From a virus: a DNA stretch of 64,000 bases. Shown one piece after another: positions 1-43,405 of this stretch. How positions within the stretch are numbered: position 1 is the stretch's first letter; each line of letters starts with the position of its first letter. Under the pieces are notes generated by a model. It was not told the origin of the DNA. It made no database searches and worked only from the letters and a program-made list of their open reading frames with translations. A program made the translations under genes and the position numbers. The stretch is from the IMG/VR virus record IMGVR_UViG_3300045988_174813; one strand, given 5' to 3'.

Positions 1-244
1 AACCGCCATAGACGGTCGTATAATCAGTACTAAAATTTATAGACATAGCATCTAAATAAGGTTCTACTAATTGAGTTATATATGTGGGTTTACCGTTTAT
101 ATTTGTTTTTATCTTCAAATAAAAAGGTTCAGAACTTTCAAAGTTTAGTGCCGACATATCATAATAAGACGTTCCACAATAAGGGCATTTATTTTTTTCT
201 GGCTCATACACAGCCCCGCAATTAGGACAATTCTTACTCTTCAT
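1..244 (-). CDS. zinc-ribbon protein, 3' end cut by window edge
   Basis: ATG at 244; MKSKNCPNCGAVYEPEKNKCPYCG.. has two CxxC pairs; open to nt 1. Confidence 0.6.
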   Translation of the reverse strand, partial: MKSKNCPNCGAVYEPEKNKCPYCGTSYYDMSALNFESSEPFYLKIKTNINGKPTYITQLVEPYLDAMSINFSTDYTTVYGG

Positions 245-422
245 TTACTTCACAGTATGTTTCAAGAGCTTCAATAAACTTGTCATCCTCAATATAAAAT
301 CCGTCCTATCCAATAGCGCGTTGGAAATTACATATCAACTGCATAAAGCGCCAATCGGGCCACTTTTTCCAACACGTTTTCATTCTCTCAAGAACATCAT
401 CAATTCTATCAGGATTACGCAT
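234..422 (-). CDS. small hypothetical protein (1 sense TAG)
   Basis: GGAGA RBS, ATG 422, TAA 236-234, in-frame TAG 308-306; missed by ORF track. Confidence 0.6.
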
Positions 423-452
423 ACACATTCTCCTTTCATTTTATATATTTAT

Positions 453-481
453 ATTATACAATAAAAATGAGAGAAAGTCAA
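453..481 (-). promoter_or_regulatory. sigma-A type promoter
   Basis: TTGACT-17-TATAAT on minus strand upstream of 422. Confidence 0.65.
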
Positions 482-536
482 ATTTCACTTTCTCCCACAT
501 ACGATATTTTATTCCTACTTCACTTACCAATAAGTA

Positions 537-574
537 GGCGCGCCCGCCTCCGCCCCTTTAGGCGGGGGCGCGCC
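537..574 (-). terminator. GC-rich hairpin after 624-1613
   Basis: GGCGCGCCCGCC..GGCGGGGGCGCGCC inverted repeat; weak U tract. Confidence 0.45.
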
Positions 575-623
575 GTCCCAGACTTACATTCTAAATATAT
601 CCTATAATAATTCAAATCTCAAA

Positions 624-1613
624 TTAGGACTTTTGGTTCCAACCCCAATCCTAACTTTTATAATAGTTTATCCAATATTTCTCACGTTCATTCAATCTAT
701 CTTTACTTACTTCTTCAATTACTTCAAACGTAAAGTTATCTATTCCCTCATCAGCCATTGCATCGTGAACTTTTTGATGAGCTATATCTCCTATATCATA
801 TGCACTCTTGATATGAGATGTCCATCTACGTCTTATATTTACTGATTGGCCTATATATACTTTCTATGAAGGTATGTGAGTAATTTTATATATACCGCAC
901 TTTTCCTTATCTCCGAGCACTCTAAATAACATATCATTCATAGGCTGTTTTATAAATACATCATATATAAGTTTATTTAGAGCTTCTCTATTTGTAAGGC
1001 GCGGTTCAATACTTCGCAATACTTTTATATCTTCTTTGTCTGCTTCTGAAAGTTTTATTCTATAGTAATCTTGCTATTCAAGTATTTCTTGTTCTTTTTT
1101 ATAACTCTCAATAGTCAATTCTCGTGTTGACTTCAATTGAAGCAATTGTGTCTTTAGCTACTCCATTTCTTCATTTATTTCGTCTTTCTACAAATTGCAT
1201 TTAGCTATATATTTATACAAATCATCATTGAAAGCGCGCCGTTGTTTTTCAATTTCTATATTTACTTGGCCTAATAAACGCTCACGTTCACTATCTACTA
1301 GTCCTTGAAGTTCTGCATCTACTTTATCTTGTTGTAATTTTTTCTTTTCTTGAAGGTCATTACAAAATTGAGTATATTGTTTATTCTATTGCTCTTGAAA
1401 TTCTATATATTTATTGGTATATTTTTGCTTCTTTTGCTCTAATTCTTTTATAAATTCAGTTTCATCTATTTCTTTTTTCTAATTTAGTTCTTCCCTAAGT
1501 TCACAGACTTGTTTCCATCGTAAGGCCTCTAATTTTTTATTCCTATTACATAATAATATTATAGTAATTATTTCAATAATAACAAAGCCTATTCCTAAAT
1601 ATAAAAAAATCAT
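624..1613 (-). CDS. GIY-YIG nuclease domain protein with N-terminal TM helix and coiled coil (7 sense TAG)
   Basis: AAGGAG RBS, ATG 1613, TAA 626-624; C-terminus has GIYKI..KVYIGQS..RRRW..H..NEREKYWI; all 7 internal stops are TAG. Confidence 0.75.
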
Positions 1614-1656
1614 ATGATATAACTCCTTTATAAAGCTCCTTCCGCTTTACAATTTC

Positions 1657-1685
1657 ATTATACCATATGATTTCTAAAAAGTCAA
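1657..1685 (-). promoter_or_regulatory. sigma-A type promoter
   Basis: TTGACT-17-TATAAT, minus strand. Confidence 0.65.
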
Positions 1686-1688
1686 ATT

Positions 1689-2282
1689 TCATTTTGAGTA
1701 ATTTTTACTGAACTCATTAAACATAATTTTGATGTAGGCATATTCATTATCTATTTTCCCATTTTTACGTCCAAGCTATTCAAGAAGATTTTCATACTTC
1801 CCATAAGCATCAAAAACGTGGTTGTATCCCTCCAAAGTAGCAGACTAACCATCATCATATCGTAAAGAATTGGCAAAAGAAATGATCTCCCATCGCAATC
1901 TGTCAATTTCGTTAGTATCAATTTTCTTATTCATATGTTCTATTGTTTTAGTTTGTTCCGCATTGATAAGCATTACATCAGCTAATTGTTTATCTACATT
2001 ATTCAAGTGCGTATTTATAGCATTGAAAGATGTTTCAATTTTTGTATTATTAGCATCAATAATTTTTTTAACCGTGCGCTAAGCTTCGTCTCTTTTCTCA
2101 TTTGCTATTGCGCGAGCCATCTCTCTTATTTCTTCATTACGCAATTTACGTTTTTTCTCTTTACGCTTCTTACCCCAATTAGTCATAGGAGAAAAAATTT
2201 TATATATTGCTGTAAGTGCTCCCGCGATAGCACCAATAGTAATTATCCAATTTGAGATTGCAGAAATTATGTCACTTGGCAT
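1689..2282 (-). CDS. membrane-anchored coiled-coil protein (3 sense TAG)
   Basis: ORF 2079-2282 continues in frame through 3 TAGs to TGA 1691-1689; N-terminal TM helix. Confidence 0.6.
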
Positions 2283-2336: not shown

Positions 2337-2732
2337 TTAGTTGCGCTTATAGGGATTATTTTGGTCATTATGCCATTTTGACTTTGCAAGATATTTATCT
2401 TGAAATATATCTTGCGCGGACTGTATACTTTCTAAATCACAATATGGTATAATATATAAAGATAGCCCGCGCGCGAGACAGGCAGAAATCTTTATGCGGT
2501 CGTGCTCTTGATAACGAGTGAAGTCTGTATGTGTCGGTTGGAACATCTTTACTTGGACATAGTGTTGTTGACCTTGCACTTCAACTAATGATTGGAGCTC
2601 TCCATTAGAGTATATCCCGAAATCATAACGTAAAGCTTGTTTACGGCGCACTCCCTCAATAGAGACTTCGCGGGCAAACTTGTAGCCTGCCCGCGAAAGA
2701 AGAGAAGCAATGTAATCTTCGCCCTTACTCAC
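2337..2732 (-). CDS. Vsr/DUF559-like PD-(D/E)XK nuclease-fold protein
   Basis: YDF..LVEVQGQQH resembles the D..E.QG..H core of Vsr-like endonucleases. Confidence 0.45.
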   Translation of the reverse strand: MSKGEDYIASLLSRAGYKFAREVSIEGVRRKQALRYDFGIYSNGELQSLVEVQGQQHYVQVKMFQPTHTDFTRYQEHDRIKISACLARGLSLYIIPYCDLESIQSAQDIFQDKYLAKSKWHNDQNNPYKRN

Positions 2733-3856
2733 ATCAACTGGTCAATGGTGCATTCTTTATAAGACTTGTCACCATCGGGTCTCCATTCAATAATTTTTCC
2801 ATGACGCAATGCGAGGGTATCTTTCATAATCTCCATCGCCGCGATTTTTACAATGTGGTATCTATATGTTTCAGGGCTTTCACTAATTCCCTTTTTTACC
2901 TCATCAGGAATACCGCTAATCCAACCGACGGGATAGACTTTGTCCCCATCCATAACAGCAATCTCAACTGCGCTCGCCCATCCATAAAACCAAGCTTTAG
3001 TTACAGGCTCAATAGTTGCGCCGTGCTCATAGTCATTGTAATAGCGTCCAAGCATTTTTTCGTTAGTTTTGAAGTTCCACCAATACTGCCACTCATAAGG
3101 ATAATCTCCCTTATATACCTTTGTAGCAGGCTTCCAACGGCCAGTAAGAAAACAGTCAATGGGATTGTCAAGTTCTTTCTTTATTTTCAAAGTCTTGCGT
3201 GCGGTACGCTTACCTGGCTCTGCATGAGAGTTGGATTTAGTAATTACAATACCTTCTCCATCAAGCATACGCACACGCATAAGTTCATCCCAAAGAGCCT
3301 GGCCATAGTAGTATTTAGCTATTTCAATAAATTTATTGTCTGCGCGCGCAACACATTCAGATATATAACCAAGCTGAGAAAAACGTGTTTCTGCGGTCAC
3401 ACTAAGTAGAGAAGCACCAGCCCACGCCCATACATCAAATACATAATAATGAAGCTTTTCTCCTTTTTCTTGACGTTCGCGCGCCTTTTCGGGCAAACAT
3501 CCCATTATAGTGGTCACGTGGCGTGAACCTTCATTATTCGGAAAATAAATTTCTCCTAAAAGGCACGTCCCACGCGGAAGTACATCAAAGAAAGAGTGAA
3601 GATGAGGAACCCAGTCGATCTTATCCAAAAATCCACCATTCACACTTTCACTACGTCCTTGGAGGACCATATTACCGTCCATATCCTTTATAAAACGATA
3701 ATAGGCGCCATCCATTTTGCGCGAGCCAATATATGCATTTGACATAATCATAGCATAAATTTCATCCTGCTTATTCTTTTTGTAGCCCGAAGGAAATGAC
3801 CAAAATTTTTCAGCAGGCAAGCTTTGGAAATCTACGCCATCAATAATCATACTCAT
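2729..3856 (-). CDS. ATP-dependent DNA ligase
   Basis: Nucleotidyltransferase motifs SRKMDG (I), LLGEIYF (III), EGIVITK (IV), TLKIKK (V). Confidence 0.75.
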   Translation of the reverse strand: MSMIIDGVDFQSLPAEKFWSFPSGYKKNKQDEIYAMIMSNAYIGSRKMDGAYYRFIKDMDGNMVLQGRSESVNGGFLDKIDWVPHLHSFFDVLPRGTCLLGEIYFPNNEGSRHVTTIMGCLPEKARERQEKGEKLHYYVFDVWAWAGASLLSVTAETRFSQLGYISECVARADNKFIEIAKYYYGQALWDELMRVRMLDGEGIVITKSNSHAEPGKRTARKTLKIKKELDNPIDCFLTGRWKPATKVYKGDYPYEWQYWWNFKTNEKMLGRYYNDYEHGATIEPVTKAWFYGWASAVEIAVMDGDKVYPVGWISGIPDEVKKGISESPETYRYHIVKIAAMEIMKDTLALRHGKIIEWRPDGDKSYKECTIDQLM

Positions 3857-4288: not shown

Positions 4289-4951
4289 TTGGATATTCTC
4301 ACCTATGCAATTGTAAAGAAATATGTAAATGAGTGTCTGGTAGGTATGGGCGCGCTCAAAGGCGCCCCGTGCACAGTAAAAGCTACAGAAGTAACTGATG
4401 CTGGGCTAAAAGTAATTTTTGAATGGAAGGATAGTAATGGAACATCCCATACAACCGAAACCATTATACCTGCCGGTCCCCAAGGTGAACAAGGCGTGCC
4501 TGGCGCGCAAGGTGCATCTGGGCGTGGAATACTAACTATTGAAAAGACTGATACGTAGGGTCTTGTCGATACGTATACCGTGACTTATGATGACGGCACA
4601 TATACTACTTTCCAAATCAAAAATGGCGAGAATGGTGGGCTCTCAACTGATGGGGGGACTATGACTGGTCCTCTCATTCTTTCTGGCGACCCAACACTGC
4701 CCAATGAAGCCGTCACAAAAAACTACGTTGATACAAAGTTAGTTTCATTAGCAAAAGACGCTAATTTTGTATATCACAGCGAAGTCCCACAAAAAGTATG
4801 GAGTGTCTTACATAATTTAGGAAAGTATTGCTCTATTATCGTAGTTGATGATAATAAGAATGTAATTTATCCTGATATAACTTATGTAAGTGAAAACGAA
4901 ATACAAGTGAGTGCTACCTCGGAACTTACGGGGTATGCATTTTGTAATTGA
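4289..4951 (+). CDS. tail fibre protein with collagen-like run (1 sense TAG)
   Basis: GPQGEQGVPGAQGASGRG and GGTMTGPL..L..P..AVTKNYVD motifs; fragments 4289-4558 and 4580-4951 share a frame across TAG 4556. Confidence 0.75.
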
Positions 4952-4969: not shown

Positions 4970-6145
4970 ATGGCAAAGTTTGTAACTAACCTTGACCTCA
5001 ATTTCAATGAACTTCAAAATGCCGTGCTCAATCCGGTGGCGGAAGACCCCACTACTCTCAAAGAGGGTATGGTGTGGTATAATACCGCCGCGAAAGAGTT
5101 CAGATGTTACAAAGACGGAAAGGTAAAGCCTCTTGGCGCATAGGCGCAGTTTACTCAAGTTGGTTCTGTTGACGAGCTTCCAAGCAATGCTCAGCAAGGT
5201 GATATGGGCGTTGTAGAGACTGTTATTGATAAAGATAAGAAGTCTTATACTGCTTATATTTATGATGGTGCTTGGAAAGCTATGGATGGCAACTACGATG
5301 CAAGTAATGTGTATTTTGGTGAAGACCTTACATACACCGTTGCTATTGGCACTCTTGCCAAACCGAATGGTTCTGGTACTCTCTCTGCGAAGGGTAAGAG
5401 CGTGAAAGAAGTTCTCGCTTCTATTCTTGCGAAAGAAGCTAATCCTTCCAAGACCGAGCCTGCGGTGAGCTTCTCTTCAACTGGTGGCCTCGGCACATAT
5501 GAGATTGGTACTAAGAAGAATCTCTCCTATGCTGTTGCTCTTAGTGCTGGCGGTTACACTTATGGCCCTCCGACGGGCATTACTGCTCAGTCTTGGGAGG
5601 TTGTTTGTGATGGTGTGACCAAAACGACTGCTAATGGAACTTTCGAGAATGTCGTGGCCGAAGCTTCTGCGAAGAAGATTGTTGCTACGGCTGAATACGG
5701 CGAAGGTGCGATTCCTGTAACTAATCTCGGCAACGCATATCCTGCTGGAAAGATTAGTGCTGGCAGTAAGTCTAAGGAGTCTAGTAGCTACGTTGGCGTC
5801 CGCTATATGTTCTGGGGCCCGATGACTGATGCTGGTATGGCGCTCAATTCTGCGAACATTCGCGCGCTTGCCCATAATAAGGCTAGTGGAACTGGCGTAC
5901 TTGCTACCTTTGGTGCTGGCGCTGGTGCGAAAAAGGTCGTTGTTGCTGTTCCCGCGGGACGTAAGATTACGAAAGTGCTTATGCCTAGTGCCCTCAATGC
6001 TGATGTTACTGCCCTCTTTGTGAAGCAGGGAACACAGTCTCAAGTTGAAGGCGCGAATGCTTATGCCGCGGCTGCCTATGATGTATATGTATATCAGCCT
6101 GCGTCTATTGATGCTGGCGAGACCTATTCGGTCACAATCGGTTGA
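4970..6145 (+). CDS. tail fibre/structural protein (1 sense TAG)
   Basis: AGGAGG RBS, ATG 4970, TAG 5141-5143, same frame as ORF 5204-6145. Confidence 0.7.
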
Positions 6146-6163
6146 TAAGGAGGGAAAAAGAAT

Positions 6164-9100
6164 ATGGCTGTTATTATGAATGATGCCGCATATATGGGCT
6201 TTCCTCTGAGTATCAAGCGTGGCAACCCTGCCCCTGTTGATACTACTGCCGTTTGGTATGATAAAACTGAACTTGAAAATTATGCGAAGTCCGGTGCGAC
6301 TGCGTATGTTGGCCAAGTGCTTACTCTCGTTGCGGATGGTAAGTGCGAAGCTTATATGATTTCCAATGAGGCTGGAACTCTTATCAAGTTAGCCTCTACT
6401 ACTGCTTCTGGCGATTTAGCTAGCGATGTTGCGACACTTCAAACCCAAGTTGCGGGTCTTATTGAGAAGGTTGGCGCGCCCGCGCAAGGCGAGACTGAAG
6501 CTTCTGGATTATTCGCGCAAATTAGTGCCATTCAAACACTTGCTAATAGTAAGGTTAGCTCTGTTGGTGCGGGTGCTGGAATTGAAATTAGTGGCGAAGC
6601 TACTGCTCCTTCTGTTGCTGTAAAGCTTGACCCCACTGAAGGTAATGCTCTCTCTATTGTTGAGGGTAAGGGCCTTCGTGTCGAAGTCCCTAAGGTCGTC
6701 CATCCTAAATACACTGTTGAGAAGCTTGGCTCTGCGTCCGAGGGCGCGGTTGCCTCTTATGCGCTCAAGAAAGATGGAACCCAGGTTGGCGCAACAATTG
6801 ATATCCCCAAAGACCTTGTTGTTGTAAGTGGTTCTGTTGTTGAACTCAAAGCTGGCGCACTTCCTGCGGGCGTGACTGAGCCTGGCACATATATTGAACT
6901 TGTTCTCTCTGGTGGAAACCCGATTTACATTCCTGTTGGCTCTCTTATTGAGTATGTCACTGGTGGTTCGGGAGAGAATGATGCCATCCAAATCAACGTT
7001 GATAGTAATACCCACAAGATATCTGCTTCTGTAAAGGCTGGTTCTCTTACTAAGACTATGCTTGATTCCGATGTACAGACCTCTCTTGGCAAGGCCGATA
7101 GTTCTGTACAGAGTGTAGCAACTGGCTCTGCTAATGGTAATATTAGTGTTGATGGCACTGATGTGCCTGTCAAGGGTCTTGCATCTGGCGCGTTTGAAAC
7201 TGTCGAGAACCTCAATGCTACCGCGCAGACTAAGGCTGAAGCTGAAGCTGGTAAAGTAAAGACTGCATTGCTTGGTAGCGAAACAGATGATGCTACCAAG
7301 AAAACAATCTATGGTGCTATTGCTGCTGCGACCTCCGCAAAATCCGATGCTATTGCTGATGCGAAAGCCAAGATTGAAGCTCTTGACCTTGATGACAAAG
7401 CCGTTGCTGGCGAGTTCGTCACCGAAGTCAAGCAGACTGATGGTCAAATTGGTGTGGTGCGCGCGAAGCTTGGTGAAAGCGATATTCCTGCACTTCCCAT
7501 CTCTAAGATTACCAACCTTCAAGATACTCTTGATAGCAAGCAGGCTAACCTCACATTTGACGGCACTTATGGTGCTGATAATGCTGCTGCTACTGTTAGC
7601 ACAGTTGAGAATGCGAAGGCTGCTGTTGTTGGCGTTGCCGCTGATACTTCTGCTAAAGACACTGTAAAGGGTGCGAAGAAGTATGCTGATGAGGTTTCTG
7701 GTTAGGCTCTTACTGATGCCAAGGCTTATGCTGATGGGCTTGTCACTGGTGATAGTGGTGTTACCGCGCGTGTTGAAGCTCTTGAGGGCAAGGTTGATGT
7801 TGCGAAGGTTTCCACGGCTATTGCTACTGCAAAGGGTGAAGCTATTGCTGATGCTAAGACTGAGACGACCTCTCAAGTTAGTGCCGCGACTGAAGCTATC
7901 CTCGGCGAAGCGGGTTATACCCACACTGTAAAGGATGCTTATGTGCTTGCTTCTGGCAAGACTACAATGGCCGAGGTTGAAGCCAAGGACTATGCGACTA
8001 AGACTCAGGCTCAGGGTTATGCTGATGCAAAGGACGCTGCCATCTCCGCCGCGAAGAAAGCTGGTGATGACGCTGCGGCCGCCGCACAAACTGCTCAAGA
8101 GACTGCTGATGCTAAGGTTGCTTCCGTAAAGGCTACTGCTGACCTTGGTATCGTGGTTGCTGGCACTGCCACTGCGCCTACGATTGGTGTAAAGGTTGAC
8201 CCCGTTGCTGGTAATGCGCTTAGCGTATCTGCTACTGGCTTGAAGGTCACTATTCCTACGGCTGACACTTATGGTTTAGTGAAGGATGAGACTGCTGGCG
8301 ATTACGCCGCGGTGTATCATCTCACTAAGAATGGCGCGAACTTTGGCGACGCTATCAATATCCCGAAGGATATGGTGGTGTCTTCTGGTACTGTTGAGAC
8401 CAATCCTACTGGTAAGCCTGCGGGAACCTATCTTGTTCTTGTTCTTGCGAATGCAACAAGCGATAAGATTTATATTCCTGTTGATAGTCTGATTGAGTAT
8501 GTAACCAGTGGTTCTAAGACCGGCGATATGATTGTCGTCGATGTGTCTGCTGACCATAAGGTTACTGCGACTATTACTGATGGTAAGATTACTCTTGCTA
8601 AGCTTGATAATGGCGTGTAGGCTTCTCTTGGAAAAGCTGATAGTGCTCTTCAGGCGGGCGATGCGCCGGGCTATGATGATATTCTTACCAAGACCGAAGC
8701 TGGCACAACTTATGTTGCTCAGGAAGCTAATAAGCGTCTGATGACTTCTGCCGAGGGCACCAAGCTCGAAGGTATTGAAGCTCAGGCGACAAAGAACTCC
8801 ATCAAGCTCAATGGTGTGGCTAATGCCAATCCTGAGTTCTATGCGCCAACTACTGCTGGTTCTGCTGGCCAGGTTCTTATTGCTAGTGGAGATGGAGCCC
8901 CGACTTGGAGCGCGATGCCCAAGAGCTTCATCAAGTTCGTTCAGAAGAACCCTGCTCTTACTCCTTCTGGTGGTAAGGCTACTTGGACGATTGGCGCGTC
9001 TGCGCATGGTATTGTTGCGGAAGACATTATGGTTCAACTCTTTGAGGTTGCTACTGGCGAGCAAGTGTTTGCTGATATCATAGTGGGCGCGGATAAGAGT

Positions 9101-9716: not shown

Positions 9717-9718
9717 CT

Positions 9719-34578: not shown

Positions 34579-34597
34579 AAATATAGAAAGTGGATGA

Positions 34598-35010: not shown

Positions 35011-35026
35011 GTTTCGCCCTATATAT

Positions 35027-35101
35027 TGTGCTTTAGCTCAGTGGTAAGAGCCGGCGACTTATAATCGTCAGACGATAGTTCAACTCTATCAAGCACAACC
35101 A
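35027..35101 (+). tRNA. tRNA-Ile (UAU)
   Basis: Acceptor TGTGCTT/AAGCACA, D arm GCTC-AGTGGTAA-GAGC, loop CTTATAA, T arm GATAG-TTCAACT-CTATC, CCA. Confidence 0.8.
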
Positions 35102-35514
35102 TTTGGGAGGAAGGATGTAATCCGTAATCTACCTCCACTAATATGGCGTAAGTAGCTTGGACTTTGCTCCGCCTATAATAGAGCCTAACTCAAAGCATAG
35201 TGTTATAGAGCGTGAGAGCCAACGTCTATGTTGGCTCCCGCAATTGAACAGCTAATTATTCATTTTTCCCTACCTCCTTCTTTGTTCTCTTTTGGTCGTT
35301 GAGAGAATAAATAAAACGACTACCAATAGACTTTCACACCTCTGGCGGGCTGCAAGTGGCAAATGAAAGTCTTTCCGAAAGTAGGAAAATCCTTCTACTT
35401 GCGCGGAAACCATTTCGGAATTGACCACTGCGATGGTATCTTCGTTTTAGAGGTTACAGCCTAGTTAGCCATTATGGGAAGTCTGGTCAATGGAACATAA
35501 TGGTTAGCGTACTT
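35102..35514 (+). ncRNA. ~410-nt ORF-free structured spacer
   Basis: Helices GAGCCAAC/GTTGGCTC 35215-35236, GACTTTCA/TGAAAGTC 35329-35371, and 12 bp TTAGCCATTATG/CATAATGGTTAG 35464-35508. Confidence 0.4.
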
Positions 35515-35591
35515 GGTGCCATCGACTAATTGGCTAGGTCACGACCCTTTCACGGTCGTAATGTTGGGTTCAAGTCCCACTGGCATCTCCA
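35515..35591 (+). tRNA. tRNA-Glu (UUC)
   Basis: Acceptor GGTGCCA/TGGCATC, anticodon arm CGACC-CTTTCAC-GGTCG, T loop TTCAAGT, CCA. Confidence 0.75.
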
Positions 35592-35624
35592 TATATTACC
35601 GATATATTAGAAAGGAAGAGACAA

Positions 35625-36398
35625 ATGGACATCACTAATTTTGATACCTATAATGCGCGAATGTCATCCTCTATTGAGGATAAAATGTGGTTTTGGGATA
35701 AAGTCAAACATACTACAGATTCTATTGTAGATTATGGATGCGCCGATGCGTCTCTTCTTTTGCGTATCAATGAAGAGCATCCTTATCAGACTCTTATTGG
35801 CTATGATGCTTCTGATGATATGCTAGCCCGCGCGAAAGAAAAAACTAAAAATACACCTATTTGCTTTGTAGAAAGTATATTTGAGCCGGAAATGAAAGAG
35901 ACTTGTCTTGTTCTTTCTTCTGTAATTCATGAAATCTATTCTTATCAGTTGAAAGAAGATGCAGATTTTGAACTGGGCATGATTTTTGACCTTGGCGCAA
36001 AATATATTGCAATTCGTGATATGGGTATACGAGATATATGCCGTAATATAGAAACACCAATCGATGTTCTCAAAAACATTTATGCACGCGATGATGTTGC
36101 TAAGATTGCTTCTTTTGAAAAACGTCAAGGCCGTATTTCTAATTGGGCAAATTGTATTCACTATCTTTTGAAGGCGCCATATGACGAGAATTGGGCGCGA
36201 GAAGTGGAAGAAAATTATGTACCGTTTACTATGAATGAAGTGCTCGCGCAATATAATGTGGATAGTCCTGTCAAATATGATGTGGTGTTTTTTGAAGCAT
36301 ATACCTTACCCTATGTGCGCGAACGCATTATTCGAGATTATAATATTAGCTTGTATACGCCCACTCACTATAAACTGCTTCTTGAACGTCATTTCTAA
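35625..36398 (+). CDS. class I SAM-dependent methyltransferase
   Basis: IVDYGCADAS (motif I), LIGYDASD, LVLSSVIHE; embedded in the tRNA island. Confidence 0.6.
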   Translation: MDITNFDTYNARMSSSIEDKMWFWDKVKHTTDSIVDYGCADASLLLRINEEHPYQTLIGYDASDDMLARAKEKTKNTPICFVESIFEPEMKETCLVLSSVIHEIYSYQLKEDADFELGMIFDLGAKYIAIRDMGIRDICRNIETPIDVLKNIYARDDVAKIASFEKRQGRISNWANCIHYLLKAPYDENWAREVEENYVPFTMNEVLAQYNVDSPVKYDVVFFEAYTLPYVRERIIRDYNISLYTPTHYKLLLERHF

Positions 36399-36405
36399 TC
36401 TATAT

Positions 36406-36489
36406 GCCACCGTGATGGAAAGTATACATACAAGCCTTAGAAGCTTGCGCCCGCGAGGGATTGCGAGGTCGAACTCGCCGGTGGCACCA
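36406..36489 (+). tRNA. tRNA-Leu (UAG)
   Basis: Acceptor GCCACCG/CGGTGGC, anticodon arm CAAGC-CTTAGAA-GCTTG, long variable arm, A73, CCA; T loop looks 6 nt. Confidence 0.7.
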
Positions 36490-36496
36490 GTAAAAT

Positions 36497-36525
36497 TTGA
36501 ATTTTCTGAAAATTTAGTGTATAAT
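36497..36525 (+). promoter_or_regulatory. sigma-A type promoter
   Basis: TTGAAT-17-TATAAT. Confidence 0.65.
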
Positions 36526-36559
36526 ATATACATAAGATGAAGAAAGGAAAGAAAATCTA

Positions 36560-36775
36560 ATGGCTTATTTTGATTGTATGGGAACTTGTGGGGTTAGTCC
36601 TTTCAAGTGTAAGAATCACTATTGTAGTGGTAATCCTCATTACACCCCGCCGAAGCGGAAAGTGAAACCCAAGCAGGGTTCTGGCAATCATCCTGTTCGT
36701 TCTATTCGTGCGAAAATTCGTAAGGATGATGGACGCGGATATAATTTCTTTAGAGATATGGCGCGAGACGAATAA
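36560..36775 (+). CDS. small basic Cys-rich protein
   Basis: GAAAGGAAAG RBS; 71 aa, K/R-rich. Confidence 0.5.
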   Translation: MAYFDCMGTCGVSPFKCKNHYCSGNPHYTPPKRKVKPKQGSGNHPVRSIRAKIRKDDGRGYNFFRDMARDE

Positions 36776-36778
36776 GTT

Positions 36779-36855
36779 TAGCGTATAGTGGAAGGCTCTT
36801 ACAGCGATAGATTTATAATTCTATTGTATTATTGGTTCGACTCCAATTGCGCAAT
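36779..36855 (+). tRNA. tRNA-like gene with 7-bp anticodon stem and 8-nt loop (TTTATAAT)
   Basis: Acceptor TAGCGTA/TGCGCAA (1 mismatch), T arm ATTGG-TTCGACT-CCAAT; non-canonical anticodon arm. Confidence 0.35.
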
Positions 36856-37239
36856 TGCGTATAGCTTAGTTGGTAAAGCAAATAAAAATTATTAGAGCCT
36901 TGGATAGTTTACCTTAGATAAGTTTGGATTTTAGTTAGTTTTGAGTAAAGACCCTTACAGCAAACATTCTAATATTTTTGGACTTATAATCCCGTGGTCG
37001 GTGGTTCGAGTCCACCTCAGACAGCCTGCGTGGTATGTCAGGTAGCTCAGTTGGCTAGAGCACGAAAATTATTTTGTGGGTCTTGTTTTATGTTTTGTTG
37101 GATTGGTACTCCTTAGTAAATAAAGGCGCGGGACTGCAATCTTTGAAAAAAGAATGTGATATAATAGATACTGTCGAGCGACCTCGGTAGGCTTGACCCC
37201 AAGTTCGGCTGGATTATCCAGCTCGCGCCTTGTATTTAT
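36855..37239 (+). other. cluster of unpaired tRNA half-molecules plus a structured element
   Basis: 5' half 36855-36880, 3' half ~36978-37024 (loop CTTATAA, T arm GGTGG-TTCGAGT-CCACC), 5' half 37036-37062; helix AAGGCGCG/CGCGCCTT 37124-37230. Confidence 0.4.
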
Positions 37240-37315
37240 GGATGGTTATCTCAACTGGAAGAGAGCTCGCCTTACACGCGAGAGGTTAGAAGTTCAAGTC
37301 TTCTACTATCCACCA
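37240..37315 (+). tRNA. tRNA-Val (UAC)
   Basis: Acceptor GGATGGT/ACTATCC, anticodon arm CTCGC-CTTACAC-GCGAG, T arm AGAAG-TTCAAGT-CTTCT, CCA. Confidence 0.85.
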
Positions 37316-37602
37316 TAGATTACCACTTGTTAGATTGTTATCCTCCTGAGACGTCAGCTAGTTCTGGCAATCAATAAGTGAATAATCTACGTCCAATATC
37401 TCACTCACGACGTAAAACTCTTGTGAGGTCGCAAAGGAGAGATGCGTGAGCGGGTCTCACTCCAGACTGCGTTAGGTCGAAAAGACGTCTAGCTCAACCT
37501 TTTTCTTTGTCTGTTCTTTTAGTGGAAGTATCGAAAAATGAACGGCAGAAACGTTTCGAGGTTCGAGTGGTTTCCTTGGGAGGACCGAAAACCACTCACT
37601 AT
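37316..37602 (+). ncRNA. ~290-nt ORF-free structured spacer
   Basis: Helices GTGAG/CTCAC ~37446-37460 and GTGGTTT/AAACCAC ~37567-37594; GACGTC-AGCT boxes at 37351 and 37484. Confidence 0.35.
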
Positions 37603-37679
37603 GCTTCCATACCCCAATAGGTAGAGGGGAATGGCTCAAACCCATTGTAGTCTCAGTTCGAATCTGAGTGGAAGTACCA
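37603..37679 (+). tRNA. tRNA with anticodon CAA but a short (class I) variable arm
   Basis: Acceptor GCTTCCA/TGGAAGT, anticodon arm AATGG-CTCAAAC-CCATT, 5-nt variable region, T arm CTCAG-TTCGAAT-CTGAG, A73, CCA. Confidence 0.65.
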
Positions 37680-37765
37680 TTGGCAGTTTACCACCTGCCG
37701 TCGATTTTTTTCTTTAGCATATGATAAGTTATGACGTTCTTATCTGAAATAAAAACGTCATCTAT

Positions 37766-37840
37766 GGGAGATTAGCCTAGTGGTTCAGGCAGTCGGCTGT
37801 TAACCGACCTACAGGTGTTCAATTCACTTATTTCCCGCCA
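37766..37840 (+). tRNA. tRNA-Asn (GUU)
   Basis: Acceptor GGGAGAT/ATTTCCC, anticodon arm GTCGG-CTGTTAA-CCGAC, T loop TTCAATT, G73, CCA. Confidence 0.85.
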
Positions 37841-37935
37841 GAACGGTTGTTGGGCCAACCGTTTCGTTTCCTCTTTTTCTTTGTAGGGTTTGGCAGTTTC
37901 CTTGGGGTCTCACTTCTAAAAACTGCCTTTTATAT

Positions 37936-38009
37936 TGAGGATGTGGTGTAATGGTAGCATTCCTGTTTTGGGTACAGGCGGAGCCGTTCAAATCGGACAT
38001 CTTCAACCA
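37936..38009 (+). tRNA. tRNA-Pro (UGG)
   Basis: Anticodon arm CCTGT-TTTGGGT-ACAGG, acceptor TGAGGAT/ATCTTCA, CCA; weak T stem. Confidence 0.65.
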
Positions 38010-38035
38010 TATCAAAAAAATTTAGGAGGTATATT

Positions 38036-38308
38036 ATGCCTAAGGTACTCTTTGAATGTAATGATTGTGGCAAGTTCTATGGCAGTGAAGCGGAAGCTCT
38101 TGCTTGTGAAAAAGCTCATGCTAGTGAACGCACGCGTAAGGAAAAGCTTCAGGCTGAAAAGAAAGCTCGTTTGGAAGCTATCCGTGCACAGTATGAAAAG
38201 CTTCTTGAAGATATTCGCAAGTTCAATGAGGACTATGCGGAACCTGCAACAATGAGTTATACTGGTGCACTTAGTAAGGTGTTGGATAGTTTTTTCAAGT
38301 TGTTCTAA
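38036..38308 (+). CDS. zinc-ribbon / coiled-coil protein
   Basis: AGGAGG RBS; CNDCG..C start, K/E-rich helix. Confidence 0.55.
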   Translation: MPKVLFECNDCGKFYGSEAEALACEKAHASERTRKEKLQAEKKARLEAIRAQYEKLLEDIRKFNEDYAEPATMSYTGALSKVLDSFFKLF

Positions 38309-38403
38309 GTGAATCATTGAATAAGATATAAAGACGCATAACAGCAATACATTATATAAATATTTTTTGAAAATATATTATGGAAATGCGTCTTGGTTTA
38401 TAT

Positions 38404-38478
38404 AGGAGCGTCGCCAAGTGATTAAGGCACGGGACTTTGACTCCCGCATCGTGCGTTTGAATCGCACCGCTTCTGCCA
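38404..38478 (+). tRNA. tRNA-Gln (UUG)
   Basis: Acceptor AGGAGCG/CGCTTCT, D arm GCCA-AGTGATTA-AGGC, anticodon arm CGGGA-CTTTGAC-TCCCG, G73, CCA. Confidence 0.85.
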
Positions 38479-38558
38479 GATAGATTGAATAAATCGTCTA
38501 ATTCAAGTAGGTTATAAGATAGTCTGCTAATTTCCGTTCAGCAGGAGCGCAGAAAGAT

Positions 38559-38586
38559 AGATATAAGACCTAATATATCTTTTGTT
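38559..38586 (+). terminator. stem-loop plus T run
   Basis: AGATATA-8 nt-TATATCT, then TTTTG. Confidence 0.45.
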
Positions 38587-38601
38587 CAATCAACCTAAAA
38601 T

Positions 38602-38630
38602 TTGAATAATTTCAAAATATATTGTATAAT
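38602..38630 (+). promoter_or_regulatory. sigma-A type promoter
   Basis: TTGAAT-17-TATAAT. Confidence 0.65.
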
Positions 38631-38665
38631 ATATACATAAAGTAAAGAAGAAAGGAAACACTAAA

Positions 38666-39037
38666 ATGAAAACCTATCCTATTGAGAAGTACAAGTTCAT
38701 TATCCTTCCTGAGCAGAAGAAAGTCATTGCGCTTACTTCGTATGCTGGTAAAACTGTAAAGGGTGTTGCCGTGTGCAGTGAACATGATGAATTTGATATT
38801 GAAACGGGCAAACGGCTTGCTGCCGCGCGAGCCAATGTAAAGGTAGCAATGAAGCGTAAGGCGCGTGCCGAGAAGAAGCTGGCATACTTTGATAAAATTA
38901 TTGAAGATGTCGAGCGTGAGTATCATGAGCTTGAAGGTTATGCTTATGATGCTGGCGAACGATGGGAAAACGCGATTGATGAACTGGCTGGTGTGCTGAA
39001 TGATGTTGGCGCGCTTGAGCCGATGGATATTGAGTAA
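38666..39037 (+). CDS. hypothetical protein
   Basis: GAAAGGAAA RBS; 123 aa. Confidence 0.55.
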   Translation: MKTYPIEKYKFIILPEQKKVIALTSYAGKTVKGVAVCSEHDEFDIETGKRLAAARANVKVAMKRKARAEKKLAYFDKIIEDVEREYHELEGYAYDAGERWENAIDELAGVLNDVGALEPMDIE

Positions 39038-39048
39038 GGAGTAAATTT

Positions 39049-39645
39049 ATGGGTCGGTGCGAAAGTAAGTATTGTGAAAAATGTGGGTGTTATGTGCCTG
39101 AGGGAGAGACAGCGTGTGTTTCTTGTGGGTATGATCCTACTCCAAAGCCTGTGCGCCGACCTGATCCTCTTGCAGATATGTATGCGCGAGACCCTTGGGC
39201 GATAGCGCAGTATCATACTCCTTTACCCATGGATTACGCACAACTGGTGAATGTGGCACCGAAGGTAAGACAGATGACTCTGAATGAAGTGCTTGATGAG
39301 TTGAAAATGGAAGATAAGTATGAGCGGTCCGCGCGAGCAATGAGTCAGATTTTTTGTTCAACTGCTCAAGCCTCTGAAGCTTTTACTCAACTTGCACGAG
39401 ACCATCAAGATGCGCAGAAACAGGTAATATTGCATGAATTTCTTTGGGCAAAAGGCGGAAAGGGCAATTCTTCAATAGTCACAACTCCAAATTGTATCAA
39501 AAATGAGATGGATAGAAATTGTTTGGAACTTTGTGAATATTGTTCTTTGGAACAAGAGAGAAAAGATATATATACTCACAGGATTATTAGAACATACAAA
39601 TGTTTGAAACATCCTCATGTGTCTTATATAAGTGTAATCAACTAA
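39049..39645 (+). CDS. zinc-ribbon protein
   Basis: CEKCG..CVSCG N-terminus; 198 aa. Confidence 0.55.
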   Translation: MGRCESKYCEKCGCYVPEGETACVSCGYDPTPKPVRRPDPLADMYARDPWAIAQYHTPLPMDYAQLVNVAPKVRQMTLNEVLDELKMEDKYERSARAMSQIFCSTAQASEAFTQLARDHQDAQKQVILHEFLWAKGGKGNSSIVTTPNCIKNEMDRNCLELCEYCSLEQERKDIYTHRIIRTYKCLKHPHVSYISVIN

Positions 39646-39647
39646 AT

Positions 39648-39741
39648 GGGCGTCTAATCCTAATTGGCTAAGGAAATAGTCTTGAAAACTATTAGTAGCA
39701 TCGTAAGGTGTGTCTCGGTTCAAGTCCGAGGGCGCTCGCCA
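39648..39741 (+). tRNA. tRNA-Ser (UGA)
   Basis: Anticodon arm ATAGT-CTTGAAA-ACTAT, long variable arm, T arm CTCGG-TTCAAGT-CCGAG, G73, CCA. Confidence 0.8.
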
Positions 39742-39743
39742 TG

Positions 39744-39856
39744 AATAGAATAGTAGGGTTAGCCTGTTCCGTGGTGATACGCGGGTCGCACCTTTGAGAA
39801 CGCCTTGTATACGGGTAAAACAGAGCACAAGCCGGCAATGTTCTCTCTATTCTATT
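39744..39856 (+). ncRNA. ~115-nt structured spacer closed by a 10-bp helix
   Basis: AATAGAATAG (39744) pairs with CTATTCTATT (39847). Confidence 0.35.
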
Positions 39857-39862
39857 TTATAT

Positions 39863-39950
39863 GCGGAGTAAATCCAGAAGGTCTGGAGCCTACCTGCTAA
39901 GTAGTGCGTAGTCGTAAGGCTATATGAATCGTTTTCATTGCTCCGCGCCA
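39863..39950 (+). tRNA. atypical tRNA-Ser (GCU)-like
   Basis: Acceptor GCGGAGT/GCTCCGC, loop CTGCTAA, long variable region, CCA; T loop lacks TTC and the D arm is aberrant. Confidence 0.45.
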
Positions 39951-39953
39951 TAT

Positions 39954-39996
39954 GCCAGAGATTGGTGTTGAGTGGGTTCGAATCCCACCGCTGGCA
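39954..39996 (+). other. acceptor/T-arm minihelix (tRNA lacking D and anticodon arms)
   Basis: GCCAGAG-11 nt-GTGGG-TTCGAAT-CCCAC-CGCTGGC-A; no CCA. Confidence 0.4.
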
Positions 39997-40073
39997 TCGA
40001 GGGCTTTTGCAATAAGCCCAAGAGATTGCAATCATGTATATTGGGAGGAGTTGAGACCCTACCCAATATATAT

Positions 40074-40148
40074 GCCTTCGTAGTATAATGGCTATTACTT
40101 CGGATTTGTAACCCGAAGATAGGTGTTCAATTCACCTCGAAGGCTCCA
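40074..40148 (+). tRNA. tRNA-Thr (UGU)
   Basis: Acceptor GCCTTCG/CGAAGGC, loop TTTGTAA, T arm AGGTG-TTCAATT-CACCT, CCA. Confidence 0.8.
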
Positions 40149-40648
40149 TTACCGCACGGATGGCCATGGTTCCAATATGACGGTATTACTTCTATATTGA
40201 AGGTTTGGTGCGGTATATAAATGAATATGGGTCTAAATTCAAATGGTAGAGCCTTCATTTGAATAACAAAGTGTGATAAATGTGAACAGATAGAGCGCTA
40301 AGCGCACGGGTCTTCTAGGGGCCTTCTCTATCATCTATGCTCTAATAGTTTAGTAGGAAAAATACCGGCATCGTTGCCGGAGAGAGCGGTTCGAATCCGT
40401 GAAGGGGCCGTGGTTCTTCCACCACGAAGAGAAGCGGGTGGTTTCCACCGTTAGGAAACTAAGATACCGAGTGACACGTGGTATCTATGGGAGGATACGT
40501 TGACTTCCACTGTTGGTCTCCTCAACAGTAATGTAGATGGAGTGACATCCGGAAAAGAGCGGAATAGCGCATTCGACGTTGTGATGTGCGCCATAGGTAT
40601 ATGGCCGGAAAAAAGATACCCATCCCGTCTGCGAGGACGGGAGCCTAT
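40149..40648 (+). ncRNA. ~500-nt ORF-free structured spacer (large ncRNA candidate)
   Basis: Helices TACCGCAC/GTGCGGTA 40151-40215, GATACC/GGTATC 40463-40485, CTGTTG/CAACAG, CCCGTC/GACGGG 40623-40640; holds a tRNA 5'-half-like copy at 40339. Confidence 0.4.
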
Positions 40649-40729
40649 CCTCTAATAGCAAAGTGGTAATGCATACCATCCCAAGTTTACGTAAGAAGGT
40701 AACCATTGGTTCGAGTCCAATTTAGAGGA
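40649..40729 (+). tRNA. tRNA-like gene with an enlarged anticodon region
   Basis: Perfect acceptor CCTCTAA/TTAGAGG, D arm GCA-AAGTGGTAA-TGC, T arm ATTGG-TTCGAGT-CCAAT; TACC..GGTA encloses 20 nt; no CCA. Confidence 0.4.
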
Positions 40730-40730
40730 C

Positions 40731-40756
40731 GCCCGCATAGCGGGCTATTTTATTTT
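40731..40756 (+). terminator. rho-independent terminator ending the tRNA island
   Basis: GCCCGC-atag-GCGGGC, then TATTTTATTTT. Confidence 0.7.
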
Positions 40757-40771
40757 ATGGAGAGATGAATT

Positions 40772-41608
40772 ATGGATTATTTGGGTTATAAGACGATAAG
40801 ACTTAATGATGAAGCATTGAGCCAACTCTATACCAATGGAAATTTAGGTGCGGACGCGCCCGAATTTTTGGTGAATGAGTATCTTATAGCAACAGATAAA
40901 GATGATAATCCAGTGGACTATTTTAGGTATACCACTGATGGGATTTTCGTTCGTGTTCCATTTCTCACTATGTCATCTAATCGTGGAGAAAAGTTGAAAC
41001 CACGCAATCAAGAACAAAGAATTGCTTTTGATTTGATGAAAAATAAAGATGTCCCAGTCAAACTGCTTACAGGAACATGGGGCGCGGGTAAGACAATTGC
41101 CTTGATTGGACAAGCTATGGAAGATCTAGAAGCTGGTGTGTTTGAAAAAATTACTTGGGTACGTAATAATGTACAGGTAAAAGACACTGATGCTCTTGGC
41201 GCGTTGCCTGGCTCTTCCGAGAGTAAAATGTTGCCATATGTAATGCCTTTTGCTGACCACTGTGGTGGGACAGAGGCCGTTGAACAGATGATTGAAATGG
41301 GTCTTTTGGAAGTAATTCCTCTTGGCTTTTTGCGCGGGCGCAGTATTCGCAATTCAGTTATTCTATGTTCAGAGGCAGAAAACCTTACTAAGCAACATAT
41401 CCAACTGCTTCTTGGTCGTCTGGATACTGGAAGTCAGTTATGGTTTGATGCAGATGTACGCCAGCGAGATAGAGAAGCTTTTGTAAAATCTGCGGGTATT
41501 GAGACTATGGTTGAACGATTGAAAGGAAACCCCCTATTTGGATATGTCCATCTACAAAAATCTGAACGGTCGCCTGCTAGTAGGCTGGCTGACCTTTTGA
41601 ATGACTAA
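40772..41608 (+). CDS. phoH: PhoH-like ATPase
   Basis: GTWGAGKT Walker A, ..LGALPGS..K..P..RGRS..N..I..EA.N......LGR...GS......D..Q.D. Confidence 0.85.
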   Translation: MDYLGYKTIRLNDEALSQLYTNGNLGADAPEFLVNEYLIATDKDDNPVDYFRYTTDGIFVRVPFLTMSSNRGEKLKPRNQEQRIAFDLMKNKDVPVKLLTGTWGAGKTIALIGQAMEDLEAGVFEKITWVRNNVQVKDTDALGALPGSSESKMLPYVMPFADHCGGTEAVEQMIEMGLLEVIPLGFLRGRSIRNSVILCSEAENLTKQHIQLLLGRLDTGSQLWFDADVRQRDREAFVKSAGIETMVERLKGNPLFGYVHLQKSERSPASRLADLLND

Positions 41609-41615
41609 TCTCCAG

Positions 41616-41643
41616 GAGGCTCGTACAAACGAGCCTCTTTTTT
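41616..41643 (+). terminator. rho-independent terminator
   Basis: GAGGCTCG-6 nt-CGAGCCTC, then TTTTTT. Confidence 0.8.
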
Positions 41644-41704
41644 AGAATATATAGTATACAAAATCTACTTATAGTTAGAAGAATAACTTATAGGTGGTGA
41701 GTGT

Positions 41705-43405
41705 ATGGCTGGCAAGCTATGGCATGCCTTTGGATAGCAAGGTACTTTTGTATACTATAAGCGCCTTGCAACTGATGCTTTAGTAAATCCTTCTCTTGGA
41801 GGACTATATAAGCATTCATTGGGGCAACTTGAAATGTCTTCTATACTTGGAAAAGTGAAGAATAAAGATATATCGCGGTCTCTTCGTGCGCAAGCATCTG
41901 TGGAGTTAAACAAAGAGCTTACTGCTTTGCAAAATGCCTGGGGCATAAGTTTTCCTGCTTCTGTCGTGAATGGGTAGTATTTTTATGATGGGCTGATTAG
42001 GGCTATTAATACACAAATACAAACTAATGCGGTGTATTAGCGTAATAAAGACCGTTTAGAGTATACCAATAAGCAAGGTAAACGAAATGCTCTTGCAAAA
42101 ATAGATGCGACGCAGTTCTTTGGAACATATTTTGAAAAACAATGGAAAGCAAATTATAAACAGATATAGGCTGAGTTAACAAGTAATATGACTGGTGATA
42201 ATCTTGTCCAACTTGTTGAGAGTACTCTAAATAACTGGCTTCCAACTTTATTAAATAATGCTCTTATAGATATGATGTCTAGTCAAGCGTTTGATGTGCG
42301 CTGGAATACACCAGAAGCTATAGCGGGTAATTAGCGCTGGGAACAGGATACTGCTTATAGAGATATGGTTGCCCAACTCCAAAAATACGGCGCAGATATG
42401 TAGAATAATCAGATATTACAATAGGTATGGAAAACGTATAATTTTGATGGGTTACTCGATGCACTTACTAAATCTATTACTGCTTCCGCGAAAGCAGAGA
42501 CTTCTACTAAGGATTTAAGTAAAGTTCTTTCTAAACAAGTTTCTAAAGTAGTGGGGCGCGCATCTACGGCAGGTAATTTAGCTGAAATCATTTGGAGTTA
42601 GCTGGTTGCAAGTGTAAATAGTGGTCCTGACTTTAGTGTAATGCATACTGGCGCGCGCAATCAATAGAAAGCCGACTTTATGATTTTCTTTCGCGCGAAT
42701 GCCCAAGACTTTCTAAGTAAGCAAAGTGAGATTATTGCTGAGCAAAAAGCTGACGATGAAGAAAGTATACGTATACAAAACATTATTGCAACTAACGGGG
42801 CATCATAGTTTTTAGCGAGTAATTCGATAGGTTATAATTTTATTGCTTACGTGAACGCAAAGAATTACACTCTCAATGATAGTTTTAGCGGATTTAGCGC
42901 AGGTTCCGCAATGGGCATGGGAGATATTGAACGTATGTTAAATATGATTCCTGGTGTAAGTTAGAATGGTGTATGGAGTCTAATTTCTTCTCTTATTCAA
43001 TTCGGAGATGGTGCGATTGGTGCGGGGACCGGCATGGAACAGGATCTTATGAATCAAATGAGTGAAGTCATTGCTAATTTTTTATTTGATGACTATGCAA
43101 CTTTGTGCTCTGATATAAGTGGTTCTACAAGTAGCAGTATTCATTTATTTGCTCTTGATGGGATATATATACCACTTTCTTTTTTTTTGAATATAAGTGC
43201 AGATGCTATTGATATAGGATGGGAAGAAGCGCAAGATTATTTTAATTTTGAACTTCATACTGTGCCTATACTTTATGGGGATTTGGCTCTTGATGAATAT
43301 ACGCCCGAAATGTGGGAGACACAAAGAGCTGATGCGCTTGCAAGAACTAAGATAAGTATGAGTTTTTTAAAGTCTTTTCAGACGCTTATTGGTTCTTTAA
43401 TATAA
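41705..43405 (+). CDS. 566-aa protein of unknown function (11 sense TAG)
   Basis: GGTGGTGAG RBS, ATG 41705; single frame to TAA 43403-43405; contains ORF 43034-43405; all 11 internal stops are TAG. Confidence 0.7.

Follow-up and report, generated by a model that had tools for sequence, protein, structure and literature searches.

We analysed a 64 kb stretch of DNA (hereafter the window) from the IMG/VR virus record IMGVR_UViG_3300045988_174813. The window has a G+C content of 40.7% and comes from the genome of a large tailed phage of gut type; contigs related to it reach 84-127 kb. In all likelihood this phage decodes UAG as glutamine (code 15), carries its own CUA tRNA and splits its use of TAG by gene class. 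An earlier note on this DNA had proposed glutamine at TAG for positions 1 to 43,405 and had judged stop codon recoding to be known biology in gut phages, a judgement that was right. Omitted from it were the phage CUA suppressor tRNA and the sharp split of TAG use between late and early genes.

That TAG is a sense codon, as the earlier note held, can be regarded as close to certain from coding density, the coding signal past TAG, protein domains that cross TAGs and equal purifying selection on either side of them. Genes were called under four codes, namely code 11 and codes with TAG, TGA or TAA read as sense, using a codon-usage score that was trained only on code-11 open reading frames (ORFs) of at least 250 amino acids and that treated every stop codon as neutral. 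For positions 1-20,800 the coding density was 65.3% under code 11, 90.2% with TAG as sense, 70.3% with TGA and 66.1% with TAA as sense, which bears out the proposal that genes be called again with TAG as a sense codon. The corresponding values for 43,406-64,000 were 69.8, 70.4, 63.2 and 68.8%; density was recovered by the TAG-sense model alone, and in part of the window only. All 13 code-11 ORFs with a TAG end were nested in frame within longer TAG-sense genes. Over the 30 codons past a terminator the mean in-frame coding score was +6.1 for TAG, −0.5 for TGA and −2.1 for TAA, and a TAA or TGA followed within 30 codons downstream in 14% of cases after TAG, 65% after TGA and 72% after TAA. The 89 genes called with TAG as sense terminate in TGA (52) or TAA (37), and a TAG stop is needed by none, as had been claimed; neither TGA nor TAA interrupts any of the recoded genes. 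With TAG masked as X, matches to the Pfam domains GIY-YIG (in two genes), Flg_new, NlpC/P60, ELLD and PG_binding_1 crossed the masked positions.

The genes that carry sense TAGs are the following.
624-1613, minus strand: transmembrane, coiled-coil and GIY-YIG protein with 7 in-frame TAGs
1689-2282, minus strand: transmembrane protein with a weak holin-family match (PHROG phrog_20, holin, E = 1.7e-4), 3 TAGs
4289-4951, plus strand: fibre-like gene, 1 TAG
4970-6145, plus strand: fibre-like gene, 1 TAG
6164-9169, plus strand: fibre-like gene encoding a 1001-amino-acid fibre, TAGs at 7703 and 8618
9318-16528, plus strand: tail/fibre module of eleven consecutive gene calls, ten of them with 1-5 TAGs each
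12117-13166, plus strand: fibre-module gene with a Flg_new domain, 3 TAGs
14320-15945, plus strand: fibre-module gene matching tail-fibre PHROGs, 5 TAGs
17603-17932, minus strand: gene with one sense TAG, conserved in relatives
18017-18538, minus strand: dNMP-kinase-like gene with one sense TAG (~18466) past the P-loop, conserved in relatives
19644-20540, plus strand: endolysin (NlpC/P60-ELLD, LysM, PG_binding_1), TAGs at 19767, 19941, 20001, 20289 and 20466
29378-29914, plus strand: DNA methyltransferase with one sense TAG (29402), taken from its first ATG (the automated call starts at a TTG at 29330)
32796-33503, plus strand: GIY-YIG homing-type endonuclease inside the tRNA array, 7 TAGs vs 6 CAA/CAG
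41705-43405, plus strand: conserved 566-amino-acid protein adjoining PhoH, 11 in-frame TAGs

Between 1 and 43,405 the gene caller placed 64 in-frame TAGs in 25 genes, about 4-6 of which precede better start codons; with starts corrected, some 58-60 TAGs in 21-23 genes remain, close to the approximately 61 in 22 genes first counted. Several particular assignments held up. The fragments 6164-7705, 7943-8620 and 8741-9169 do share one frame, being parts of an ORF (6149-9169) broken only by the TAGs at 7703 and 8618, and the gene 14320-15945 has its five TAGs as codons at 14524, 15061, 15127, 15640 and 15661. Continuity of domains was likewise found where it had been claimed, with Pfam GIY-YIG matches spanning TAGs and the internal repeat of the fibre aligning through TAG 8618. 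Alignments of the joined proteins with profile models and homologues, which had been suggested as a check, showed that domains and homology continue through the TAGs. In gene 624-1613 the Pfam GIY-YIG match (E = 1e-9) crosses the TAG in GIYKITHIPS#KVYIGQS (# denotes TAG here and below). The codon reported in the context FQEQ-TAG-NKQ is present in the same gene, at 1386-1388, and its position is to be corrected to the minus strand. The last TAG of this gene (651-653) stands nine codons before the TAA, just past the Pfam match, and is either sense or a true stop. GIY-YIG is fused here to a long coiled coil rich in Q, E and K and to a transmembrane segment at the N terminus, which is unusual for a homing endonuclease.

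Other parts of the first description had to be revised. TAG use is not uniform over 1-43,405; it is concentrated in 234-20,540, 32796-33503 and 41705-43405. The endolysin had been given 8 TAGs, a number that applies to the ORF from stop to stop; from the start at 19644 (MSIIEKAV, as in all homologues) there are five. Three plus-strand joins, 2522-3526, 18158-18583 and 18663-19082, had been presented as genes and are probably not genes, since their translations do not look protein-like and minus-strand gene calls cover all three; at the aligned position of a TAG in 18663-19082, one relative has TAA. The genes called on the opposite strand are these.
2729-3856, minus strand: ATP-dependent DNA ligase
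18017-18538, minus strand: the dNMP-kinase-like gene listed above
18531-18971 and 18968-19387, minus strand: RNase H

Comparison with relatives gave further evidence of translation across the TAGs. Relatives were found by anchoring on TAG-free neighbour genes (PhoH and TROVE), which yielded four loci on three IMG/VR contigs (84-123 kb) whose anchor proteins are 87-98% identical to those of the window. IMGVR_UViG_3300045988_164752, IMGVR_UViG_3300045988_166972 and IMGVR_UViG_3300029716_000003 are related to the window, and the endolysin is found on contigs as long as 127 kb. Three independent contigs among the relatives have TAG at the same sites. Single-nucleotide codon differences were synonymous in 78% of cases before the first TAG and in 79% after it; the downstream segments are therefore translated and equally constrained. 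Full-length homologues with TAG read through already exist in a metagenomic protein collection. In the fibre module the paralogues 11536-12111, 12117-13166 and 15956-16528 (also 13199-13723) start with MGTW(S/T)TT(A/E)PT and end with a KING-x-W-like motif, and since the C-terminal motif of 11536-12111 is conserved past TAG 12058 it lends independent support to read-through there.

The amino acid inserted at TAG is very probably glutamine, as first proposed, for which codon exchange, conserved glutamine columns, the fibre repeat and glutamine enrichment all speak. In the relatives, the TAGs of the window are paired with TAG (46), CAA (8), CAG (6) or five other codons, and the TAGs of the relatives are paired in the window with CAA (7), CAG (4) or five other codons. 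Of the non-identical partners, 25 of 35 are thus CAA or CAG. CAA is the commonest partner even though two mutations separate it from TAG, as synonymy of TAG, CAG and CAA would predict. No TAG pairing occurred among about 1,570 AAG, TAT, TAC, TGG, TTG and TCG positions, and GAG was paired with TAG once. Orthologues of the fibre-module genes from 10545 onwards hold TAG or CAA/CAG at most TAG sites, and relatives have CAG or CGG at the site of the methyltransferase TAG 29402. The 566-amino-acid protein has an orthologue on the related locus L006 (L006 10001-11788; 40% identical) with 11 TAGs, two at shared positions, while 4 of the remaining 9 align with glutamine in the window. A more distant syntenic orthologue on L007 (L007 10001-11674) has no TAG; L007 uses the standard code, 2 of its 25 genes ending in TAG. 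This pattern suggests that recoded sites arise repeatedly from glutamine codons.

Protein alignments point the same way at conserved sites. In the endolysin, TAG 20001 (20001-20003, context GD#TGREI) falls on a GDQTG motif, cited in the earlier note and borne out by homologues of 50-62% identity, in which it is invariant. TAG 20466 (20466-20468, context ALRAY#KLKGLPADG) had been read as the Q of the FQ in PG_binding_1, and this Q is indeed near-invariant in homologues; the same column holds Q in the PDB proteins 5tv7 and phiKZ gp144 (3bkh). The homologue P0113 has CAG at both endolysin sites and comes from a standard-code phage, in which TAG serves as the stop of a gene and no in-frame TAG occurs. 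In the fibre 6164-9169, the internal repeat places Q opposite TAG 8618 (LDSDVQTSLGKADS vs LDNGV#ASLGKADS). Distant homologues of the 566-amino-acid protein show Q in 17% at TAG columns and 21% at canonical glutamine columns, against a background of 4.8%, and the family of the GIY-YIG gene 32796-33503 shows 11% at both kinds of column against 3.1%. In both families (18 TAG columns in all) enrichment is strongest for Q, at about 3.5-fold. Comparisons among fibre-module paralogues (11034/13754 and 11536/12117/15956) were too divergent to bear on the identity of TAG.

The reading of UAG is probably carried out by a tRNA of the phage itself. The elements concerned are listed here.
30206-40730, plus strand: tRNA array with 16 ARAGORN calls (12 pass Rfam), small genes and the GIY-YIG endonuclease lying between them
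34550-34578, plus strand: near-consensus promoter of sigma-70 type, TTGACT-17-TATAAT, some 20 nt ahead of the suppressor tRNA
34598-34673, plus strand: suppressor tRNA whose CUA anticodon reads UAG (ARAGORN; Rfam tRNA)
38404-38478, plus strand: phage tRNA-Gln(UUG), the canonical glutamine decoder (ARAGORN, Rfam)

The suppressor tRNA scored 33.8 bits in Rfam, with a gathering threshold of 29, and has A1-U72, G2-C71, G3-C70, G10, discriminator G73, an encoded CCA and the anticodon loop C-U-CUA-A-C. It shares A1-U72, G2-C71, G73 and the anticodon-loop context with tRNA-Gln(UUG), which has G3-U70. Judged by the identity elements of Escherichia coli glutaminyl-tRNA synthetase, its acceptor end would be Gln-like. 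The suppressor anticodon arm is present in at least 104 otherwise diverse viral contigs. At least 108 CUA tRNAs were recovered (32 distinct), with a cloverleaf fold and compensatory changes in 11 of 21 stem pairs, and they form a conserved family; one member combines the same body with the acceptor stem UGGGG...CCCCA-G-CCA. An identical copy of the 29-nt promoter TTGACTTTCTGGAAATTTTAGTGTATAAT lies at 32648-32676 before tRNA-Leu(UAA), and a copy with 3 mismatches at 47676-47704 before the early-region gene 47716-48243; none of 100 shuffles gave a match. The contig IMGVR_UViG_3300029716_000003 has the same promoter element ahead of tRNA-Leu(UAA). Scanned with Rfam, the whole window returned tRNAs only; neither a group I intron close to the GIY-YIG genes nor a Y RNA close to the TROVE gene turned up.

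Of the side findings, the most interesting concerns L001, a relative of about 91% DNA identity, in which the suppressor has been replaced in situ by an unrelated CUA tRNA. The slot of the suppressor is occupied there by a CUA tRNA (L001 2177-2251) of about 50% identity with a non-canonical T-loop (AGCGTTA) and no GG in the D-loop, and the promoter and flanks are near-identical to those of the window up to the borders of the tRNA. Over the stretch that was compared, window 10.5-31.5 kb, the L001 contig retains most window TAG positions. The suppressor tRNA might be a modular, exchangeable "code-switch cassette", an idea that we put forward tentatively and hold to be possible rather than probable. 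If it were true, suppressor tRNAs would be swapped horizontally between recoded phages, and host factors such as tRNA-cleaving defences or synthetase incompatibility could drive the swaps. Elsewhere in the array, two tRNA-like sequences with odd anticodon loops, at 36779-36855 (4-base, "tata") and 40649-40730 (2-base, "cc"), are kept in L001 and lie below the Rfam threshold. The ARAGORN calls Met(cat) at 33539-33610 and Ser(tga) at 39648-39741 are not in the Rfam list.

TAG use, expressed as TAG/(TAG+CAA+CAG), differed strongly between sets of genes.
1-20.8 kb (fibres, holin-like protein, endolysin): 0.20, with TAG in 19 of 25 genes
20.9-41.6 kb: 0.04
32796-33503 (GIY-YIG): 0.54
41705-43405: 0.28
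43.4-64 kb: 0.03

The set at 1-20.8 kb was distinguished from the two low-TAG sets with p = 3e-8 (Fisher). In the low-TAG sets, most residual TAGs lie upstream of better starts with Shine-Dalgarno motifs, the genuine exceptions being the methyltransferase TAG 29402 and possibly one at 30355. Genes free of TAG include DNA ligase, RNase H, a kinase, nucleoside deoxyribosyltransferase, permease, methyltransferase, PhoH and the TROVE-like protein. In the tail/fibre module, gene 9988-10578 has no TAG, and the lone TAG of 9318-9716 may precede its real start. Two long blocks stand out.
20927-29285, plus strand: block without a confirmed sense TAG, encoding a TROVE-like protein, a kinase, a nucleoside deoxyribosyltransferase, a xanthine/uracil permease and others, with TAA or TGA stops; its sole called TAG (25684) precedes a better start
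43463-64000, no strand assigned: block of 38 genes, most of them small, in which no sense TAG was confirmed and no gene stops at TAG, with a density of 70% under either code; its three called in-frame TAGs precede better starts

In replication, nucleotide-metabolism and early genes TAG is rarely sense and never a stop, so that they would read nearly the same under either code. In the fibre, lysis and homing-endonuclease genes, and in one other, TAG makes up 20-54% of the glutamine codons, and full-length products would be formed only once the suppressor is active. We propose that the phage CUA tRNA is made from the array behind a strong promoter of host type, that it would be charged with glutamine by the host machinery, presumably so because its acceptor end resembles that of tRNA-Gln, and that it would compete with release factor 1 at UAG. 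The partition of TAG might then time the expression of late genes, for which we see about even chances. The host code is presumably standard; no bacterium is known to read TAG as glutamine. CW_7, LysM, GH25, PG_binding_1 and Flg_new domains suggest that the host is probably Gram-positive.

Several observations weigh against this interpretation. The suppressor is the lowest-scoring tRNA of the array (at the 33.8 bits given above) and has two mismatches in its T stem, and its overall similarity to the phage tRNA-Gln (45/79, compared with 40-54 for other tRNAs) does not discriminate. The window proteins that were scanned with Pfam and PHROGs include neither a release factor nor an aminoacyl-tRNA synthetase. 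Some TAG columns align mainly with I, L, K or E in distant homologues, so that glutamine is supported statistically and at conserved sites, not everywhere. Some database homologues are themselves translations of TAG to Q (e.g. that of L006) and inflate the Q counts; DNA-level checks of three homologues showed the standard code in two and recoding in one. Sense TAGs occur in metabolic genes (29402 and ~18466) and are missing from the late-module lysin 16540-17574, which makes the late/early partition strong, not absolute.

Among the other explanations, the one that survives best, though it is improbable, is partial read-through, in which UAG is a leaky stop and truncated forms are functional products as well. 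Host release factor 1 presumably still competes at UAG, the window has no gene related to release factors, and the T stem of the suppressor is weakened, all of which would favour some termination. Without efficient suppression, however, genes with 5-11 TAGs would yield hardly any full-length protein, many TAGs lie within folded domains (NlpC/P60, PG_binding_1, GIY-YIG) where truncation would abolish function, and selection downstream of TAG equals that upstream. Somewhat less probable still, and quite unlikely, is a sense TAG that specifies another residue, either pyrrolysine or Tyr, Leu, Ser, Lys, Glu or Trp as in amber suppressors. This could be read from the K, E, I or L seen at several TAG columns in distant homologues, from the lack of any special likeness between the suppressor and the phage tRNA-Gln, and from the "Pyl" label that ARAGORN gave to the tRNA. 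That label rests on the anticodon only. Pyrrolysine tRNAs lack G18G19 and a T-psi-C loop, have one base between the acceptor and D stems and a 3-nt variable loop, and go with pylS and pylBCD genes. The suppressor has GG in its D-loop, the T-loop TTCGAGT and two bases (T8, G9) before the D stem, and hence no Pyl architecture, and no pyl genes were found among the scanned window proteins. The exchange of TAG with CAA and CAG, its absence for AAG, TAT, TAC, TGG, TTG and TCG with a single case for GAG, the near-invariant glutamine at GDQTG and FQ and the enrichment of Q above all other residues at TAG columns speak against any residue but glutamine. The notion that TAG is an ordinary stop, the broken genes being pseudogenes of a decaying element or assembly or sequencing artefacts, would explain why the late module looks broken at 65% density under code 11, yet it is hardly credible given identical TAGs in three independent related contigs, purifying selection alike on both sides of TAG (79% vs 78% synonymous), domains and homology that continue through TAGs, genes that TGA and TAA never interrupt and a dedicated CUA tRNA.

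Decoding of UAG as glutamine is an established phenomenon, and the pattern in the window matches that of published code-15 gut phages. In the report by Borges et al. (bioRxiv 10.1101/2021.08.26.457843), these comprise the Lak, crAss-like, Garnet, Amethyst, Jade, Sapphire and Agate clades; TAG aligns with glutamine, CUA suppressor tRNAs occur and structural and lysis genes are recoded. The report also describes replication genes in the standard code, homing endonucleases that are strongly recoded and relatives that often use the standard code, and gives a detection rate of 40% for the CUA suppressor tRNA among TAG-recoded genomes. Accessory code-change genes (release factor 2, aminoacyl-tRNA synthetase) are treated there as optional and found in few clades, and the TGA-recoded Agate phages have a recoded group I intron endonuclease. 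The window agrees with these phages in its in-frame TAGs in structural and lysis genes, its standard-compatible replication and early genes, its CUA suppressor tRNA, a strongly recoded homing endonuclease (here GIY-YIG, with 54% of glutamine codons as TAG) and a close relative with the standard code (here L007). Unlike the clades with a "code change module", the window shows neither release factor 2 nor a tRNA synthetase of this kind. It also differs from crAss and Lak, which have Bacteroidetes hosts, in its probably Gram-positive host and in related contigs of about 84-127 kb.

The phAss-1 or proposed Phassvirus group consists of large tailed phages of human-gut type that read TAG as glutamine and have a tRNA-Sup-CTA, many tRNAs and no dedicated aminoacyl-tRNA synthetase; standard-code relatives infect Firmicutes (PMC10607447). 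The window resembles this group in TAG as glutamine, in the CUA suppressor tRNA, in its many tRNAs and in that no aminoacyl-tRNA synthetase of its own was seen. It appears to represent a lineage other than phAss-1, and one with no close relative among deposited phage genomes, because neither megablast of 1-25,000 nor tblastn of the 566-amino-acid protein against the deposited-phage collection gave a match and the best TROVE match in deposited phages is 41% identical and comes from unrelated records. Similarity to phAss-1, BK046881 and BK025033 was not found in that collection, which is presumed to contain them. No terminase gene is present in the window. In crAss-like phages glutamine at TAG was shown by metaproteomics (PMC9523058); the reassignment is the same and late structural proteins are affected there too, although it was validated by experiment in that phage group, which is unrelated, and is inferred from sequence here.

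The window can also be compared with amber suppression of the supE type. In E. coli a tRNA-Gln with a CUA anticodon inserts glutamine at UAG, and the phage tRNA is similar in combining CUA with a Gln-type acceptor end (weak 1-72 pair, G2-C71, G3-C70, G10, G73). Unlike supE, it is encoded by a phage, divergent and a member of a widespread phage family, and it would serve dozens of obligatory sense TAGs instead of occasional nonsense mutations.

For this phage, annotation, inference of host range and lysin mining must use code 15. The standard bacterial code loses about one quarter of the late module and splits roughly 20 genes, including the 1001-amino-acid fibre, the endolysin, the holin-like protein and two GIY-YIG endonucleases. 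What is known of the phenomenon is not altered by the window, a clean example in which recoding is confined to late and homing-endonuclease genes and the suppressor tRNA is driven by a promoter. Because both recoded and standard-code phages are found among its syntenic relatives, the lineage could serve to study the origin of the code switch.

Some minor observations concern individual genes. The 566-amino-acid protein belongs to no Pfam or PHROG family; its AlphaFold model (pLDDT 79.5) had no PDB match at E <= 0.001, and its BFVD matches were unnamed gut-phage proteins only. Its TAG load alone would place it among the late structural genes. Auxiliary genes at 20957-22519 and 26266-28208 encode a TROVE/Ro60-like RNA-binding protein (phrog_850, E = 1e-119), a nucleoside 2-deoxyribosyltransferase and a xanthine/uracil-family permease. 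The cell-wall hydrolases differ in their TAG loads, with none in the GH25 + CW_7 protein of the late module (16540-17574) and five in the endolysin 19644-20540. A third hydrolase, at about 50209-50988 in a region of early type, combines SH3 and NlpC/P60 with a signal anchor and has no TAG.

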